Of a stretch of 63,651 bases of DNA, positions 1 to 13,698 are shown piece by piece (position 1 is the first letter of the stretch; each line of letters opens with the position of its first letter). The notes beneath the pieces were generated by a model. The model saw only the letters and a program-made list of their open reading frames with translations. It ran no database searches and was not told the origin of the DNA. The DNA lies in NCBI GenBank assembly GCA_964448765.1, contig CAYUXM010000001.1:1-63651 (forward strand). The letters run 5' to 3'. The translations under genes were made by a program, and so were the position numbers. Origin of the DNA: an uncultured Rhodobacterales bacterium. Lineage in GTDB: Bacteria > Pseudomonadota > Alphaproteobacteria > Rhodobacterales > Rhodobacteraceae.

Positions 1-943
1 CGAGGATGCGTTCGAGCAGGGCGACGGGTTTCTGGGTGGGGTAGCCGAGGCGTTCGGCCGCCTGGGCGGTCAACGGCGCTATATCGAGCCAGATATCTTG
101 TAGCGGCGTGCCTGGCATTTCGTCGAGATAGCGTTTCTGCCGTGGCACCACTCCGGGCTTACTCTGAAAGATACGACCTTCGGCATAGAGTTTTTCCATA
201 CGCTCTCTTGAGAAACGCCAATATCGCGTCACGCCAAGGAACTCGTAATGCGGGTTTCGCTTTTTCGGGTCTGAACCGCCGGGTGCAGTAATGTCGAAAG
301 AACCGAACCGCCGGCCGGTGCCCTCTTCTACGTGTCGGTAGTGTTTGTCGATATAGCTTTGATCATATGCGTGATATTGCGTGTTCCACGTGTAGTTGTC
401 TGATTTCATATACTGAAAGATGACATCATGCTGATAGCCAAGTAGGCGGCGACCTTGCCCAGCGTCGCTGTGCGCGGATGTGCGTTTCCAAATGATCTCT
501 GCACCGAACCGCCGCGCCCCGAACACCGCATCCAGCAAGATCTTCAGGTAATGGCTCGCCGTCGGGTCACAGTGCAGATACAGGCTGCCGGTCGGTTTCA
601 GCACCCGGTGCAGTTCCAGCATCCTGACCGCCATCATCGCCAGGTAGGCCATCATGTCGTTGTCGCCCAGGAACGCCCGCATCGCGCGCAGCATCTCGCC
701 CGCGTCGGACCCGGAATGCAGCACGTCGCGATAGGCCGCCTCCGCCGCCTCGCCCCAGTGCCACGTATCGTCGAACGCCTCGATCTGCGCGGCGCTGTCG
801 CGCCCCGTCGGCCCCTTGAACAGCACGTTGTAGCTGGCATTGGAATTGAACGGCGGGTCGAGGTAGATCAGGTCCACCGTTTCGTCGCCGATCTCGTTGC
901 GCAACACGTCAAGGTTGTCGCCGTAGTAAAGATGGTTGGACAC
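1..943 (-). CDS. Site-specific DNA methyltransferase, beta-class N6/N4 (PF01555-like). 3' end lies beyond the window edge.
   Basis: Manual minus-strand translation from GTG at 943 gives VSNHLYYGDNLDVLRNEIGDETVDLIYLDPPFNSNASYN...LHCDPTASHYLK...IIWKRTSAHSD...PTQKPVALLERIL. It has a DPPF catalytic motif near the N-terminus and a motif-X-like PTQKP near the edge. It is absent from the ORF track because it has no stop codon inside the window. Confidence 0.85.
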   Translation of the reverse strand, partial: MSNHLYYGDNLDVLRNEIGDETVDLIYLDPPFNSNASYNVLFKGPTGRDSAAQIEAFDDTWHWGEAAEAAYRDVLHSGSDAGEMLRAMRAFLGDNDMMAYLAMMAVRMLELHRVLKPTGSLYLHCDPTASHYLKILLDAVFGARRFGAEIIWKRTSAHSDAGQGRRLLGYQHDVIFQYMKSDNYTWNTQYHAYDQSYIDKHYRHVEEGTGRRFGSFDITAPGGSDPKKRNPHYEFLGVTRYWRFSRERMEKLYAEGRIFQSKPGVVPRQKRYLDEMPGTPLQDIWLDIAPLTAQAAERLGYPTQKPVALLERIL

Positions 944-1066: not shown

Positions 1067-1375
1067 ATGCGGGCGATTTTCCTGGCGGCGGTGATCGGGG
1101 CGCGCACGGTTCCGGCCGGGGCCGGGCAGATCGAAAGCGCCTGCCTGCTGTCGGACCGCGCCGGCGGCGACCGGGCGCTGTGCGCCTGCATCCAGACCGT
1201 CGCCGACCGGATGCTCACCCAGGCCGACCAGCGCGACGTGGCGCGGTTCTTCCGCGACCCGGAACGCTCGCACGACATGAAGCTGCGCGACGATGCGCGG
1301 GCCGAGGCGTTCTGGGCCCGGTTTTCCGAATTCGGTGCCGCCGCCGAAAGCGCCTGCGCCCCCGGCGGCGGCTGA
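1067..1375 (+). CDS. Hypothetical small Cys-containing protein, possibly exported
   Basis: This is the 3' part of track ORF 455..1375. The 5' part of that ORF is antisense to the methylase. Starts at the ATG at 1067, has strong GC3 bias and a hydrophobic N-terminus (MRAIFLAAVIGA), and contains 5 Cys. Confidence 0.5.
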   Translation: MRAIFLAAVIGARTVPAGAGQIESACLLSDRAGGDRALCACIQTVADRMLTQADQRDVARFFRDPERSHDMKLRDDARAEAFWARFSEFGAAAESACAPGGG

Positions 1376-1378
1376 TCC

Positions 1379-1894
1379 TCAGTTCGAGTCCTGCATCTGG
1401 CCGTGGCCGTTGCCGTGGCCCATGCCCTGCTGCATCTGGCCGCCCATCATCGGCTTGCGTTCCAGATCTACCGGGATCTCCAGCGTGATGTCGCCGGCCT
1501 TCTCGAAGGTCAGCGTGACCGCGACCGTGTCGCCATGTTGCAGCGACCGGTTGAGGCCCATGAACATCACGTGGTCGCCGCCGCGCGCCAGCGCGTGGCT
1601 GCCGCCGGCGGGGATGGCAAAGCCCTCCTCGACCTCGATCATCTTCATCACGCCGTTGGCGTCGGCCTCGTGGGTGTGCAGTTCCACCCGCGCGGCGATG
1701 TCCGAGGCGGCGGCGACCAGCCGGTCATCCTCGGCGCCGTGGTTCTCGATCACCATGAAGGCGGCGCCGGATTTCGACATCATCGTCGAGACGCGGGCAT
1801 AGGGATCGGTGACGGTGATCGTGTCTGCGGCGAAGGCCGGCAGGGCGAAGGCGGCCGCGGCGGTGGCGGCCAGGAAGGTGCTGCGAAGGACCAT
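1379..1894 (-). CDS. Copper chaperone PCu(A)C (DUF461) with Met/His-rich C-terminal tail
   Basis: MVLRSTFLAATAAAAFALPAFA signal peptide. PYARVS...AFMVIENHG...HVMFMGL copper motif. Tail is KPMMGGQMQQGMGHGNGHGQMQ. The ATG at 1894 was confirmed on the sequence. Confidence 0.85.
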   Translation of the reverse strand: MVLRSTFLAATAAAAFALPAFAADTITVTDPYARVSTMMSKSGAAFMVIENHGAEDDRLVAAASDIAARVELHTHEADANGVMKMIEVEEGFAIPAGGSHALARGGDHVMFMGLNRSLQHGDTVAVTLTFEKAGDITLEIPVDLERKPMMGGQMQQGMGHGNGHGQMQDSN

Positions 1895-2928: not shown

Positions 2929-3318
2929 TCAGGCCTTGGCGTTGCGCTTGCGGCGCATCAGCGCGAAGCCGCCGATCGCGGTCAGCAGAAGCGCACCACC
3001 TGCCGGGAGCGGCACCGCCGAGGGGGTCACTTCCGGCGCCCCGTGGTCGTGGCCCCGACGGTGTGCGCGGATCATGTTCCGCACCATACGACGCATCTCA
3101 TGACGGCAACCGCGAACGCCCTCGCCCCCGCACATCTGGCGGATGTGGCCCTGCCAGGACGCGCCATGCGAGTTCGAGATATGCTCGAACATCGAACCCA
3201 TATGGCCCGTGTAGCGCTCAACCAGCGCGCTGCCGTAGCTGTTGCCGTTGTAGGTGGACGCGGTGGCGCCGGTGCTCATCACTGCCGCGACAGCGGCGAT
3301 TGCAATAAACTTGATCAT
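2929..3318 (-). CDS. Secreted His/Met/Cys-rich protein with VPLPA-CTERM-type sorting tail
   Basis: N-terminal signal MIKFIAIAAVAAVMSTGATA. C-terminus is VPLPAGGALLLTAIGGFALMRRKRNAKA, i.e. motif, TM helix and basic cluster. Confidence 0.75.
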   Translation of the reverse strand: MIKFIAIAAVAAVMSTGATASTYNGNSYGSALVERYTGHMGSMFEHISNSHGASWQGHIRQMCGGEGVRGCRHEMRRMVRNMIRAHRRGHDHGAPEVTPSAVPLPAGGALLLTAIGGFALMRRKRNAKA

Positions 3319-3646
3319 TCAAAACCCCTGATGAGGATGTCAGCTTCAAAATGTGCCAAGCCCGTCCACCGGGCACGGTACGAGGCATACACCAAGGGAT
3401 AGCGCGCCGGACCGTGGTAAGCAATCGGTAAATTGCAAGGCTGGACTTTTCGGCAGGCTTCCGGCCGGTGACGGGACTCGGCCGTCCTGCCGGGGCTGCC
3501 GCGGTTTGCGCGGGCCGCCGATCTCTGATACCCGACGGCAACCACGCGGCGCGACGACCGGGCGATGACCGGCCCGCCCGCCCGCACAACCGAGTACCCG
3601 CGACGAAGCGGCCTCGGAAAACTCATCAAAGCCACAGGACGATGAA

Positions 3647-6797: not shown

Positions 6798-9700
6798 ATG
6801 CCGAAGAGAACCGACATCCGGTCGATCATGATCATCGGAGCCGGTCCCATCGTCATCGGCCAGGCCTGCGAATTCGACTATTCCGGCGCGCAGGCCTGCA
6901 AGGCGCTCAGGGAAGAGGGCTACCGGGTGATCCTGGTGAACTCCAACCCCGCGACGATCATGACCGATCCGGGGCTGGCCGACGCCACCTATATCGAGCC
7001 GATCGATCCCGGGATCGTGGCGAAGATCATCGAAAAGGAGCGGCCCGACGCGCTGTTGCCGACGATGGGCGGGCAGACCGGGCTCAACACCGCGCTGGCG
7101 CTGGCCGACATGGGGGTTCTGCACAGGTACGGGGTGGAGCTGATCGGCGCCAACCGCGCCGCGATCGAGATGGCCGAGGACCGCAAGCTGTTTCGCGAGG
7201 CGATGGACCGGATCGGGCTGGAAAACCCGCGCGCCACCATCGTTTCCGCGCCGAAGCTGGCCAGCGGCAAGTACGACATCAAGGAAGGCGTTCGGCTTGC
7301 GATGGCCGCGCTGGACGAGGTCGGCCTGCCGGCGATCATCCGCCCGGCCTTCACGCTCGGCGGCACCGGCGGCGGCATCGCCTACAACCGCGACGACTAC
7401 GAGGCGATCGTCAAGGGCGGGCTGGAGGCCAGCCCGGTCGCGCAGGTGCTGATCGACGAAAGCCTGCTGGGCTGGAAGGAATACGAGATGGAGGTGGTCC
7501 GCGACCGCGCGGACAACGCGATCATCATCTGCTCGATCGAGAACGTCGATCCGATGGGCGTGCATACCGGCGATTCGATCACCGTCGCCCCGGCGCTGAC
7601 GCTGACCGACAAGGAATACCAGCGGATGCGCAACGGCTCCATCGCCGTGCTGCGCGAAATCGGGGTGGAGACCGGCGGTTCGAACGTGCAATGGGCGATC
7701 AACCCCGCCGACGGCCGGATGGTGGTGATCGAGATGAACCCGCGGGTCTCTCGTTCCTCGGCGCTGGCCTCGAAGGCCACGGGGTTCCCGATCGCCAAGA
7801 TCGCCGCGAAGCTGGCGGTGGGCTACACGCTCGACGAGCTGGACAACGACATCACCAAGGTCACGCCGGCCTCGTTCGAACCCACCATCGACTATGTCGT
7901 GACGAAGATCCCGCGCTTCGCCTTCGAGAAGTTCCCGGGATCGAAGCCGGAACTCACCACCGCGATGAAATCGGTGGGCGAGGTCATGGCGATCGGCCGC
8001 ACGATCCATGAATCGCTGCAAAAGGCGCTGGCCGGGCTGGAAACCGGGCTGAGCGGCTTCGACGAGATCGAGATCGCCGGCGCCCCGGACAAGGCCGCCG
8101 TGGTCAAGGCGCTGTCGGCGCGCACGCCGGACCGGATGCGGCTGATCGCGCAGGCGATGCGGTACGGGCTGGGCGATGACGAGATCTGCGCGGCCACCGA
8201 CTTCGACGCCTGGTTCGTCGCCCGGATCCGCGAGATCGTCGAGGCCGAGGAACAGGTGCGCCGCGACGGGCTGCCGCTGGACGCCGCCGGGCTCCGGGCG
8301 CTGAAGATGATGGGCTTCACCGATGCCCGGCTGGCCGCGCTGACCGGCCGCGACGAGGGCCAGGTGCGCCGCGCGCGCCGCAACCTCGGCGTCCGCGCCG
8401 TGTTCAAGCGGATCGACACCTGCGCGGCCGAGTTCGAGGCGCAGACGCCCTACATGTATTCCACCTACGAGGTTCCCGCGATGGACGAGGTGGAATGCGA
8501 GGCGCGGCCCTCGGACCGCAAGAAGGTCGTCATCCTCGGCGGCGGGCCGAACCGGATCGGGCAGGGGATCGAGTTCGACTACTGCTGCTGTCACGCCTGT
8601 TTCGCGCTGACCGACGCGGGCTACGAGACGATCATGATCAACTGCAACCCCGAGACCGTGTCGACCGACTACGACACCTCGGACCGTCTGTATTTCGAAC
8701 CGCTGACGCTGGAACACGTGCTGGAGATCCTGCGGGTGGAACAGGAGGCGGGCACGCTGCACGGCGTGATCGTGCAGTTCGGCGGCCAGACGCCGCTGAA
8801 GCTGGCCAATGCGCTTTACGACGAGGGGATCCCGATCCTCGGCACCACGCCCGACGCGATCGACCTGGCCGAGGATCGCGAGCGGTTCCAGAAGCTGCTG
8901 AACGATCTGGGCCTGAAACAGCCGGTGAACGGCATCGCCGCCTCCGACGAACAGGCCTTCGCCATCGCCGAGCGGGTCGGCTTCCCGCTGGTGATCCGGC
9001 CCTCCTACGTGCTTGGCGGCCGCGCGATGGAGATCGTGCGCGACATGGACGGGCTCAGGCGCTACATCACCCATGCGGTCGATGTCTCGGGCAGGAACCC
9101 GGTGCTGCTTGACAGCTATCTTTCCGGCGCGATCGAGGTCGATGTCGATGCTCTGTCGGACGGCGAGACGGTGCATGTCGCCGGGATCATGGAACATATC
9201 GAGGAGGCCGGGGTGCATTCGGGCGACAGCGCCTGCTGCCTGCCGCCGCATACGCTGCCCGCCGGGGTCGTCTCCGAGATCAAGCGCCAGACCGCCGCGC
9301 TGGCCCGCGCGCTGAACGTCGTGGGGCTGATGAACGTGCAATACGCGGTCAAGGGCGGCGAGATCTTCGTGCTCGAGGTCAATCCGCGGGCCTCGCGCAC
9401 CGTGCCCTTCGTCGCCAAGGCCACCGACAGCGCGATCGCCTCGATCGCCGCGCGGCTGATGGCCGGCGAGCCGATGGCGGCCTTCCCGATGCGGCCGGCC
9501 TATCCCGATGGCGTCGGCCCCGACACGCCCCTGCCCTTCGCCGATCCGCTGACGCTGGCCGATCCCGACATGCCGTGGTTTTCGGTCAAGGAGGCGGTGA
9601 TGCCGTTTGCCCGCTTCCCCGGCGTCGACACGATCCTCGGCCCCGAGATGCGGTCGACCGGCGAGGTGATGGGCTGGGACCGGACCTTCGCGCTGGCGTT

Positions 9701-11068: not shown

Positions 11069-11974
11069 CTAGCGCGCGCGCAGGACGATGGCGGTGCCCG
11101 CCGCGGCGATCAGCGCGATTCCGGCGATGGCGGCAAGGCCCGGCACCTCGCCCCAGATGATCCACGACCACAGCGCCGCCACCGGCAAGACGACGTATTC
11201 GAGGATCGCCACGCGGCTCGCCTCCGCCAGCTGGTAGGCCCGGACCATCGCGCCCACGGCGATCAGCGAGCCGACCGCCTGTACCGCGGTCCACAGGATC
11301 AGCGCGCCGCCCGGCCACAGCGGCCCGCGCGTCAGGAAGCCGGCCGGACCCTCCGGCACCGGCAGCGGAAACACCGACAGAACCGCCATCCCGGCCAGCC
11401 CGATCAGTCCGAGCGCGAGGAAGAACCCGGCGGTCAGCGTCAGCGTCGATTCGGCCGCGCACCATTGCCGGGTGGCGATGTTGCCCAGCCCGTAGAACGC
11501 GCCGGCGACGACCGGCAGCAGGCTGGCCCAGCCCAGCCCCGCCGCCCCGGCCGGCCCGAGAACCAGCAGGACGCCGGCGAAACCCGCGACGACCGCGGCG
11601 ATCCGCACCGGGCCGAGCGGATGGCCGAAGACGAACCGCGAGATCAGCAGCACGAAGATCGGCGCGGTGAACAGCCCGGCCGCGACCTGCGCCACCGGCA
11701 GGAAGCCGAGCCCGGCGAAATAGATCAGGATCGCGGTGCCGTGCAGGGCGGAACGCGCGGCGACCGCGCCGGGCCGCACCGGCCGCCAGCGCAGGCCGAG
11801 CGCGGCGGCCGCCAGCGCGATCGCCGACAGGATCATCACGGTGCGCATCGCGTGAAACTGCCACAGCCCCGAGACGGCCGCGATCACCCGCACGTAATTG
11901 TCGACAAGGCCGATGACCACGGCATAGACGAGGATCATCGCCGCCGCCGCCAGCGTCCGGTTGTCCTGCGCCAT
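11069..11974 (-). CDS. DMT (EamA-like) family transporter
   Basis: About 10 hydrophobic helices with a duplicated EamA-like architecture. Starts MAQDN at 11974. Confidence 0.8.
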   Translation of the reverse strand: MAQDNRTLAAAAMILVYAVVIGLVDNYVRVIAAVSGLWQFHAMRTVMILSAIALAAAALGLRWRPVRPGAVAARSALHGTAILIYFAGLGFLPVAQVAAGLFTAPIFVLLISRFVFGHPLGPVRIAAVVAGFAGVLLVLGPAGAAGLGWASLLPVVAGAFYGLGNIATRQWCAAESTLTLTAGFFLALGLIGLAGMAVLSVFPLPVPEGPAGFLTRGPLWPGGALILWTAVQAVGSLIAVGAMVRAYQLAEASRVAILEYVVLPVAALWSWIIWGEVPGLAAIAGIALIAAAGTAIVLRAR

Positions 11975-12069: not shown

Positions 12070-13698
12070 ATGGGGTGGCTGGCTGACGAGACGGGGCTTG
12101 GGAAATCGGCGGCCAACTTCGTGCCGCTGACGCCGCTGTCGCATCTGAACCGCGCGGCCGATGTCTTCGCCGACCGGCTCGCGGTGGTCTACGGCAGCCA
12201 TCGCAAGACCTATGCCGAGTATCACGCGCGGGTCACCCGGCTGGCCTCGGCGCTGGCCGGGATGGGGGTGCGGCCCGGCGACGTGGTCGCCACGCTGCTG
12301 CCCAACGTGCCCGCGCAGGCCGAGGCGCATTTCGGCGTGCCGGCGGCGGGCGCGGTGCTGAACACGATCAACACAAGGCTCGACGTCGACACGGTGGCCT
12401 ATATCTTCGGCCATGGCGGCGCGAAGGTGGTGCTGGTCGATACCGCGCTTCTGCCGCTGGCCGCCGCCGCCTCGGCGAAGATGACCGAGGGCACGCCGCC
12501 GATGATCGTCGAGGTCGCCGATCCGCAGGCGGGCCATCCCGCGACCGGCGATTATGCCGAATACGAGGCGCTGCTGGCCGCCGCCGATCCCGGTTTCGCC
12601 TGGATCATGCCCGAGGACGAATGGGAAAGCCTGGCGCTGAACTACACCTCCGGCACCACCGGGCGGCCGAAGGGCGTGGTCTATCACCACCGCGGCGCCT
12701 ACCTTATGACGATGGGCACGGTGGTGGCCTGGCGGATGGTGCTGCACCCGGTGTTCCTGACCATCGTGCCGCTGTTTCACTGCAACGGCTGGTGCCACAC
12801 CTGGATGATGCCGATGCTGGGCGGCACGGTCGTGTGCTGCCGCGACATCACCGCGGCGAACATCTATGCCGCCATCGGCGACGAGGGCGTGACCCACATG
12901 GGCGGCGCGCCGATCGTGCTGAACGCGATCATCAACGCGAAGGCCGAGGAGCGCCGCGACTTCGACCATGTCGTCGAGGTCTTCACCGCCGGCGCGCCGC
13001 CGCCCGCCGCGACGCTGGCGGCGATCGAGCCGCTGGGCTTCAACGTCACCCAGGTCTACGGGCTGACGGAAACCTATGGCCATGTCACCGAATGCCTGTG
13101 GCGTGCCGAATGGGACGAACTGGAGCCCGAGGACCGCGCCGCCCACAAGGCCCGCACCGGTATCCTGATGCCGATGATGGAGGAGATCACGGTCGTCACC
13201 GAGACCGGCGAGGAGGTCGCGCGCGACGCAGGCCATCTGGGCGAGATCGTGATCCGCGGCAACTGCGTGATGAAGGGCTATTACCGCAACCCGCAAGCGA
13301 CGGCCGAGGCCTTCGCCGGCGGCTGGTTCCATTCCGGCGACATCGCGTTCCGGCACGACGACGGCTACATCAAGATCACCGACCGCGCCAAGGACATCAT
13401 CATCTCGGGTGGCGAGAACGTGTCGTCGGTGGAGGTCGAGGGGGTGCTGATGCATCACCCGGCGGTCTCGCTCTGCGCCGTGGTCGCCAAGCCCGACGAC
13501 AAATGGGGCGAGGTGCCCTGCGCCTTCGTCGAGTTGCGCGACGGCGCGGAAGCGACGGAGGCCGAGCTGATCGCCTTCGCCCGCGCGCGTCTGGCCGGGT
13601 TCAAGACGCCCAAGACCGTGGTGTTCTGCGAATTGCCGAAGACCTCGACCGGCAAGATCCAGAAGTTCGAACTGCGCGCGGTCGCCAAGATGGCCTGA
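12070..13698 (+). CDS. AMP-dependent acyl-CoA synthetase (short/medium-chain type)
   Basis: NYTSGTTGRPKGV AMP-binding motif, TETYG, SGDIAFRHDDGYIKITDRAKDIIISGGENV, PKTSTGKIQKF. GGGGAGGA RBS precedes the ATG at 12070. Confidence 0.9.
   Translation: MGWLADETGLGKSAANFVPLTPLSHLNRAADVFADRLAVVYGSHRKTYAEYHARVTRLASALAGMGVRPGDVVATLLPNVPAQAEAHFGVPAAGAVLNTINTRLDVDTVAYIFGHGGAKVVLVDTALLPLAAAASAKMTEGTPPMIVEVADPQAGHPATGDYAEYEALLAAADPGFAWIMPEDEWESLALNYTSGTTGRPKGVVYHHRGAYLMTMGTVVAWRMVLHPVFLTIVPLFHCNGWCHTWMMPMLGGTVVCCRDITAANIYAAIGDEGVTHMGGAPIVLNAIINAKAEERRDFDHVVEVFTAGAPPPAATLAAIEPLGFNVTQVYGLTETYGHVTECLWRAEWDELEPEDRAAHKARTGILMPMMEEITVVTETGEEVARDAGHLGEIVIRGNCVMKGYYRNPQATAEAFAGGWFHSGDIAFRHDDGYIKITDRAKDIIISGGENVSSVEVEGVLMHHPAVSLCAVVAKPDDKWGEVPCAFVELRDGAEATEAELIAFARARLAGFKTPKTVVFCELPKTSTGKIQKFELRAVAKMA

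Follow-up and report, generated by a model that had tools for sequence, protein, structure and literature searches.

A solitary methylase-Mrr gene in a Rhodobacterales contig and its low-GC, putatively exchangeable specificity cassette

The window analysed here covers positions 1-63,651 of contig CAYUXM010000001.1 of an uncultured Rhodobacterales bacterium. Its left end carries the 5' part of a gene, hereafter the methylase-Mrr gene, that is predicted to encode a Type III Mod-like DNA methyltransferase fused to an Mrr-type nuclease-like domain. The gene stands alone, and its central stretch has a low guanine-plus-cytosine (GC) content. The best explanation, held with a probability of about 0.8, is that this stretch is an exchangeable specificity cassette that is swapped by recombination in its flanks. 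The family would contain many unrelated cassette alleles, and whole cassettes would be traded by homologous recombination within two conserved flanks. Such an exchange would alter which sequence is methylated and, given an active nuclease domain, which sequence is cut; the remainder of the gene would stay unchanged. The cassette itself is taken to determine sequence specificity.

Base 1 of the window is base 1 of its contig, which belongs to a metagenome-assembled genome (MAG) of 443 contigs that is 83% complete. The gene lies on the minus strand at window positions 2-943; it begins with GTG at 943 and is open to the contig edge. The visible open reading frame (ORF) holds the first 314 of 538 codons, i.e. 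the 5' 58% of the gene, and codons 315-538 lie beyond the contig edge. The 3' end and the lepA gene were searched for in the MAG of the window and were not found there. A contig from another metagenome, designated L002, stands in for the absent 3' end. It is 99.4% identical to the window across 10.9 kb and identical at every base across the 942 nt of the gene (L002:10001-10942).

Exchange and base composition of the cassette

Three modules were distinguished in the gene, all on the minus strand. The 5' conserved module (codons 1-144, window 512-943) runs from motif IV to the helix HYLKILLDAVFGAR; its conservation across the family is 0.7-0.98, and its codon usage is host-like. The cassette follows with 152 codons (145-296, window 56-511). 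It is marked by low GC and by divergence from a congener, and contains the EIIWKR strand, a variable (DNA-facing) loop, a second core strand and the target-recognition domain (TRD) proper. The 3' conserved module starts with codons 297-314 (window 2-55), which comprise ERLGYPTQKPVALLERIL and motif X and have a conservation of 0.95. The junctions lie after ...DAVFGAR and before ERLGYPTQKP, so that the right-hand recombination junction falls at window 55|56.

The clearest case of exchange comes from a genome of the same genus, G001, which carries the gene at the syntenic site and served as the congener reference. Over codons 3-144 the window gene, as completed from L002, and the G001 gene are 100% identical in amino acids and 97% in nucleotides, with 0.13 synonymous (dS) and 0.00 nonsynonymous (dN) substitutions per site. 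Over codons 297-538 both identities are 97%, with a dS of 0.10 and a dN of 0.013. Codons 145-296, between these flanks, are only 40% identical in amino acids and 48% in nucleotides, with indels; dN is 0.57 and dS was not computable. Nucleotide identity ends after TTC GGG GCG CGG (codon 144) and restarts at GAA CGC CTC GGC TAC CCC (codon 297). Because the breaks at codons 144/145 and 296/297 are this sharp, the central module was replaced as a block. Both alleles have a low GC content at third codon positions (GC3), 0.58 and 0.59. The six nearest backbones (L043, L047 and L126-L129, the last four being those of P0006, P0008, P0009 and P0010) all bear the cassette type of the window. For this reason the recent swap would most parsimoniously be placed on the G001 side and not in the lineage of the window.

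Exchange was also seen across the family. The comparison covered 80 loci from one-genome-per-species collections, drawn from Alphaproteobacteria, Chloroflexota, Acidobacteriota and Verrucomicrobiota. The partial genes L043, L046, L047, L051 and L073 were omitted from the pairwise statistics; L004 and L022, which mapped inconsistently at the nucleotide level, were omitted from the analyses of module borders and handle codons (see below). Identity of the flanks does not predict identity of the cassette (r = -0.18 over 2926 pairs). Where the flanks are at least 85% identical, the cassettes fall below 60% in 94 of 104 pairs; conversely, in 13 pairs, some of them across phyla, the cassette is the more similar part, its identity being higher than that of the backbone by 0.12 or more. 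At a threshold of 55%, the 77 genes form at least 18 cassette classes vs one backbone cluster. Among 13 further pairs whose flanks are nearly identical, divergence sets in at codons 143-148 (155 in one pair) and stops at codons 294-298 (with one outlier). Since similarity of the cassette does not follow that of the flanks and the borders of the module stay in place, the cassette is a discrete exchangeable unit that undergoes allelic replacement of the recognition domain as in Type III mod genes.

Two side observations concern the flanks. Near the junctions some flank codons are AT-ending family-wide despite high-GC hosts (window 530-532, 53-55 and 11-13); the share of G/C-ending codons is 0.23 at D138, 0.25 at E297 and 0.31 at E311. 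This may reflect nucleotide-level conservation of recombination 'handles'. The 3' module of the genus of the window (codons 297-538, L002:10889-11614) is an outlier, with a dN of 0.23-0.28 to the six nearest relatives, among which dN is 0.09-0.20; the 5' module and the cassette of this genus are not outliers. The 3' module is also unusual in having E, in place of S or Q, at catalytic position 437. The nuclease module may have a separate exchange history.

Window positions 56-511 have a GC content of 0.534 vs 71% for the whole window. The lowest 120-nt window, at 324-443, reaches 0.40. Whether GC is measured over 120, 300 or 420 nt, the minimum of the 63,651 nt falls in this stretch (a fraction of 5e-5 to 9e-5 of all windows is as low), and with the two larger sizes the stretch is the sole region below the mean minus three standard deviations. 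GC3 is 0.896 in codons 1-144, 0.579 in codons 145-296 and 0.833 in codons 297-314, and lies at 0.90-0.94 in five neighbouring genes. GC at codon positions 1 and 2 is alike inside and outside the stretch. An origin of the dip in amino-acid composition was therefore rejected, as the effect sits at third codon positions. At four-fold degenerate sites base usage is flat inside the cassette (A.23, C.29, G.22, T.25); beyond its borders it is extreme, with A at.01 and T at.02-.03. The low GC3 is regional and also covers conserved residues inside the cassette, while other weakly conserved stretches of the same protein have no GC3 dip. The second lowest GC in the window is found at 3235-3425 (0.525 in 120 nt), a patch spanning the start of a 129-aa ORF (2929-3318, minus strand) plus adjoining intergenic DNA.

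The GC3 trough is family-wide. All 74 genome loci have a lower GC3 in the cassette than in the flanks (medians 0.55 vs 0.82, median gap 0.26), and so do 67 of 78 loci on viral contigs; overall the trough occurs in 141 of 152 family genes, in hosts or contexts of 44-73% GC. A GC3 drop of at least 0.25 was found in just 1% of 302 neighbouring ORFs. The same pattern is present in isolate genomes, namely those of Maritimibacter fusiformis, Roseovarius, Paracoccus yibinensis and Novosphingobium taihuense.

These results bear on the original prediction, made from the letters of the window, of an edge-truncated beta-class DNA methyltransferase starting at GTG 943 with a low-GC, horizontally acquired or swapped TRD. 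The enzyme class is borne out by the family match, the motif order and the solved relatives described below. The drop in composition proved genuine when sliding-window GC was computed; its limits, given as about 100-440, were refined to 56-511. The low-GC part is indeed the variable module that separates the block of motifs IV-VIII from motifs X and I. Swapping of this module holds, given the unrelated cassette of G001 within 97% identical flanks and the shuffling across the family. A low-GC syntenic orthologue without defence or mobile neighbours had been expected to speak against a swap. G001 has such an orthologue, but its segment is of different sequence, and swapping is therefore confirmed, not refuted.

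Protein, predicted activity and genomic setting

By its sequence and fold matches, the protein is a putative beta-class DNA methyltransferase that resembles Type III Mod subunits and carries an Mrr-type PD-(D/E)xK domain at its C-terminus. The full protein from L002 has 538 aa, and full-length relatives have 530-550 aa, with the added C-terminal Mrr_cat domain. PF01555 is matched with 72.3 bits by the part in the window and with 138.3 bits at full length (cut-off 26.7, residues 23-352). Motif IV, DPPF, the catalytic motif of amino-methyltransferases, is encoded by codons 29-32 (window 848-859, minus strand; reverse complement GAC CCG CCG TTC) and is invariant in 103 of 103 relatives, the set over which residue conservation was counted. 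YPTQKP (motif X, 301-306) and DPFCGCGTT (motif I, 326-334) follow and are likewise invariant. The assignment to the beta class rests on this order, motif IV preceding motifs X and I with the recognition domain in between. The best solved relative by sequence is the Helicobacter pylori Mod subunit 6K0W (phmmer E 2.6e-20, residues 3-343), and Foldseek matched the EcoP15I Mod subunit 4ZCF (E 1.2e-20); weaker structural or sequence matches were obtained with RsrI, CcrM, M.BceJIV and MboIIA. The methylated base is probably adenine (at N6), which is favoured by the DPPF motif and the best matches to the N6-adenine enzymes EcoP15I Mod, RsrI, CcrM and M.BceJIV.

Residues 409-486 match Mrr_cat (PF04471; E 1.8e-9, 38 bits vs a cut-off of 21). 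D418, D422 and K439 are each kept in 102 of 103 relatives. In the protein of the window D422, E437 and K439 are all present, so that the PD-(D/E)xK residues are intact in the pattern D...ExK; across the family, position 437 is occupied by S (69), Q (29) or E (4). A sequence search of the C-terminal domain against solved structures gave no match, and a single-sequence AlphaFold model of this domain reached a predicted local distance difference test (pLDDT) score of only 42. PADLOC returned a weak match to the candidate family PDC-S02. No paper characterising a methylase-Mrr fusion or the activity of any family member was found in the literature searches; HVO_A0006 (PMC4389544) is an unrelated N-terminal Type IIG fragment.

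The odds lean slightly towards the protein being a one-chain restriction-modification enzyme that would spread as a single gene, a reading based on its movement as a lone gene, on D and K residues that hardly vary and on the canonical D...ExK of this member. An orphan methylase with a non-cutting tail is a rather unlikely alternative, suggested by the S that most members have as their middle catalytic residue, by the housekeeping genes around the locus and by the absence of a characterised member from the literature searched.

Two further observations concern the protein and its MAG. The C-terminus (L002:11597-11614) reads QGRLDL. A Q-x-x-L-x-[LFIM] pattern at the extreme C-terminus occurs in 32 of 103 and 39 of 78 relatives, the remainder having mostly Q-x-x-(L/M)-(L/I/F), and this terminal peptide looks similar to the sliding-clamp-binding peptide of DNA polymerase IV. 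The same MAG has a second amino-methyltransferase (G000:C275:2140-2346) in a 515-aa open frame, with 38% identity over the region from motif X to motif I.

In L002, rpmB is followed by genes for a 117-aa hypothetical protein, a PCuAC-like protein and a 102-aa hypothetical protein, and then by the methylase-Mrr gene and lepA. Within 10 kb on either side of the methylase-Mrr gene, L002 has neither a Res or helicase gene nor any mobile gene. From the window it could not be seen whether a restriction, helicase or other defence partner lies beyond position 1; what lies there is the rest of the same gene with its fused Mrr-type domain, followed by lepA, and no separate partner. The site is empty in three further genera of the taxonomic family, where the 102-aa gene adjoins lepA directly; the 1.8-kb gene is therefore a single-gene insertion. 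Neither transposon ends nor target duplications were found around this insertion, only GC-rich chance repeats and two tandem GC-rich hairpins of the type CGCCCGCC TTGG GGCGGGCG (L002:11666-11757). The hairpins lie in the 252-nt spacer between the gene and lepA and could be a terminator or a repetitive extragenic palindromic (REP)-like element. A '75-aa gene' (L002:11856-12083, minus strand) was rejected as a partner, being an antisense artefact over the 5' end of lepA; the public call starts lepA at 12089, and the canonical LepA N-terminus begins at 11870 (L002).

Among 24 same-family genomes of other genera plus one congener, a full-length member was present only in G001 and one other genome. 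In the four close relatives P0006, P0008, P0009 and P0010 the gene occupies four separate loci, each time solitary amid housekeeping genes and with no res gene at the locus. The gene family is very large, with more than 8000 listed matches as a lower bound, and is carried by 441 IMG/VR contigs. Distant cassette homologues (29-48%) occur on plasmids of Enterococcus faecalis, Vibrio alginolyticus and Spirosoma linguale (L097, L098 and L100), in methylases that stand beside two large helicase genes in a recurring three- or four-gene set. These sets are probably Type III-like or other helicase-coupled systems.

The window and L002 differ at 55 positions in 10 kb, with no difference inside the methylase-Mrr gene. 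The differences are bunched in two patches (window 1221-1553 and 7229-7403), and a 12-nt indel lies at window 1416-1427, close to the Met/His-rich tail of the PCuAC-like gene. The two patches may be explained by short tracts of recombination or by hypervariability at these spots. The lack of mismatches in the gene was considered as the signature of a sweep and rejected, as the mismatches fall in two patches and most 1-kb bins hold none or one.

Origin of the AT shift

The chance is not far short of even that the AT shift reflects an evolutionary regime of the cassette's own. Cassettes would be long-lived allelic lineages without internal recombination, moving among backbones and hosts, with phage-borne copies included, and would thereby escape the GC-raising pressure exerted on the flanks. 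Expression-linked codon selection cannot separate the cassette from the flanks, because both are in one transcript. Either the cassette is repeatedly re-imported from an unsampled AT-richer reservoir, or it has its own compositional equilibrium. It is more doubtful that the low GC results specifically from an escape from GC-biased gene conversion (for this hypothesis see parts of PMC4450053), in which divergent alleles would form no heteroduplex while the flanks, as the site of the crossovers, would not escape. Expression level, strand and chromosomal position are the same for both parts of the gene, so the difference would have to stem from recombination history.

In the original prediction low GC was read as a mark of import. 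Spelled out, a low-GC donor would recently have supplied the recognition domain to the genome of the window, and the composition of the stretch would be that of unameliorated foreign DNA. The sharp GC3 step at the module borders fits such an event, and the cassette of the window is 59-65% identical in amino acids to relatives from Verrucomicrobia, Acidobacteria and Chloroflexi vs 36-48% for most Rhodobacterales. Homologous recognition domains were also found in very AT-rich plasmid methylases; in these low-GC methylases the dip is absent or slight, but they belong to other families and are therefore weak evidence. A recent import is nevertheless improbable. The six nearest backbones share the cassette type with a cassette dN of 0.09-0.13, no higher than that of the flanks; their synonymous sites are saturated throughout, yet in hosts of 66-71% GC the cassette keeps a GC3 of 0.46-0.66. 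Synonymous saturation together with the low cassette dN means that the cassette has long been associated with this backbone clade, and these relatives have kept their flat codon usage. The trough in 141 of 152 family genes and the lack of any donor sequence in the searches speak against a recent import as well, and low GC can thus not serve as its mark.

That trough survives synonymous saturation and occurs in hosts of 44-73% GC, and its regional extent includes conserved cassette residues, as would be expected if AT-rich codons were kept by selection on the cassette DNA or mRNA, be it for slow translation while the recognition domain folds, for throttled expression of a potentially toxic enzyme or through the binding of an AT-seeking silencer. 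The odds of this are poor, however, as the four-fold sites are flat, without bias to particular codons, and the cassette lacks nucleotide conservation, with synonymous saturation and a third-base agreement of 0.38-0.55. Its borders match the recombination junctions and not a structural pause point, and 152 codons are more than a throttle needs. An artefact or a trivial cause, such as amino-acid composition, chance or chimeric metagenome assembly, might be suspected in a fragmented, incomplete MAG with the gene cut at a contig end. It can practically be dismissed, given the similar GC at the first two codon positions whether within the cassette or beyond it, the independent assembly that is 100% identical over 942 nt, the same pattern in isolate genomes and the lowest-GC rank of the stretch in the window at three scales.

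Several points weigh against the interpretation of the stretch as an exchangeable specificity cassette, or against parts of it. A search of 5.8 billion proteins gave no relative of the G001 cassette above 78% identity, and in plasmid and phage records the cassette of the window has its best matches, at 48-52%, in unrelated methylases, some of them in helicase operons. As no donor was found, the two congener alleles could be an old polymorphism and not a recent import. For the cause of the shift, the slope of cassette GC3 on host GC differed between two samples, 0.69 vs 1.46, and synonymous changes polarised by majority rule number 55 from weak (A/T) to strong (G/C) bases and 50 in the opposite direction, figures that carry no information at saturated sites. 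Many family members, with S or Q at position 437, may be unable to cut. The relatives behind the family counts share kinship, so the statistical support of these counts is overstated.

Exchange of the cassette within its conserved flanks remains the best explanation, and it has practical consequences. A low-GC patch in such a gene flags an exchangeable module and gives no date of transfer. The exact junctions mark cut-and-paste points for re-targeting the enzyme. If the escape from gene conversion were true, the low GC of hypervariable allelic modules would follow from allelic divergence and not from a low-GC donor, and the family would offer a natural within-gene experiment on the determinants of bacterial GC content.

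Comparison with known systems

The methylase part agrees with the Mod subunits of Type III systems (EcoP15I 4ZCF, H. pylori 6K0W, Mbo45V 7DSU) in its fold, in the order of its beta-class motifs and in where the recognition domain lies. The difference is the lack of a Res (helicase-nuclease) gene within 10 kb and at the loci of the four relatives; a nuclease-like domain is fused to the methylase. As there is no res gene, the methylase-Mrr gene is not a Type III system.

Type IIG, IIC and IIL enzymes such as MmeI, BpuSI and Eco57I likewise combine a PD-(D/E)xK nuclease, a methyltransferase and a recognition domain in one chain, travel as a single gene and have a specificity that can be altered through the recognition domain. 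As far as the available parts of PMC2731913 and PMC3185434 go, these enzymes differ in having an N-terminal nuclease and a gamma-class methyltransferase, whereas the protein described here has a beta-class methyltransferase and a C-terminal Mrr-type domain. Mrr and other Type IV modification-dependent nucleases share the Mrr_cat match and the pattern D...(E/Q/S)xK. They differ from the present protein, which has an apparently active N-terminal methyltransferase instead of a domain that reads modified DNA.

Allelic replacement of recognition domains has likewise been described for the modA alleles of Neisseria and Haemophilus. The closest parallel is provided by the beta-class Type III mod genes of H. 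pylori, in which allelic and inter-locus replacement of TRDs ('domain movement') takes place by recombination in the conserved motif-coding flanks (Furuta & Kobayashi 2012, PMC3467074). Both cases have a central recognition module between a motif IV-VIII block and a motif X-I-III block, alleles at one locus with common flanks and unrelated recognition domains, junctions in motif-coding DNA, and discordant trees of recognition domain and backbone. The H. pylori genes differ from the present ones, which are solitary methylase-Mrr fusions without a res partner, occur in environmental high-GC Alphaproteobacteria plus at least four other phyla, and have no simple-repeat phase variation. The strong synonymous AT shift across the family is a further difference; GC content was not found in PMC3467074. 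The methylase-Mrr gene thus adds a clear example of recognition-domain replacement outside the pathogens of the first description. The genes of the two congeners differ essentially in a 152-codon cassette and are expected to methylate different sequences, and to cut them if the nuclease is active.

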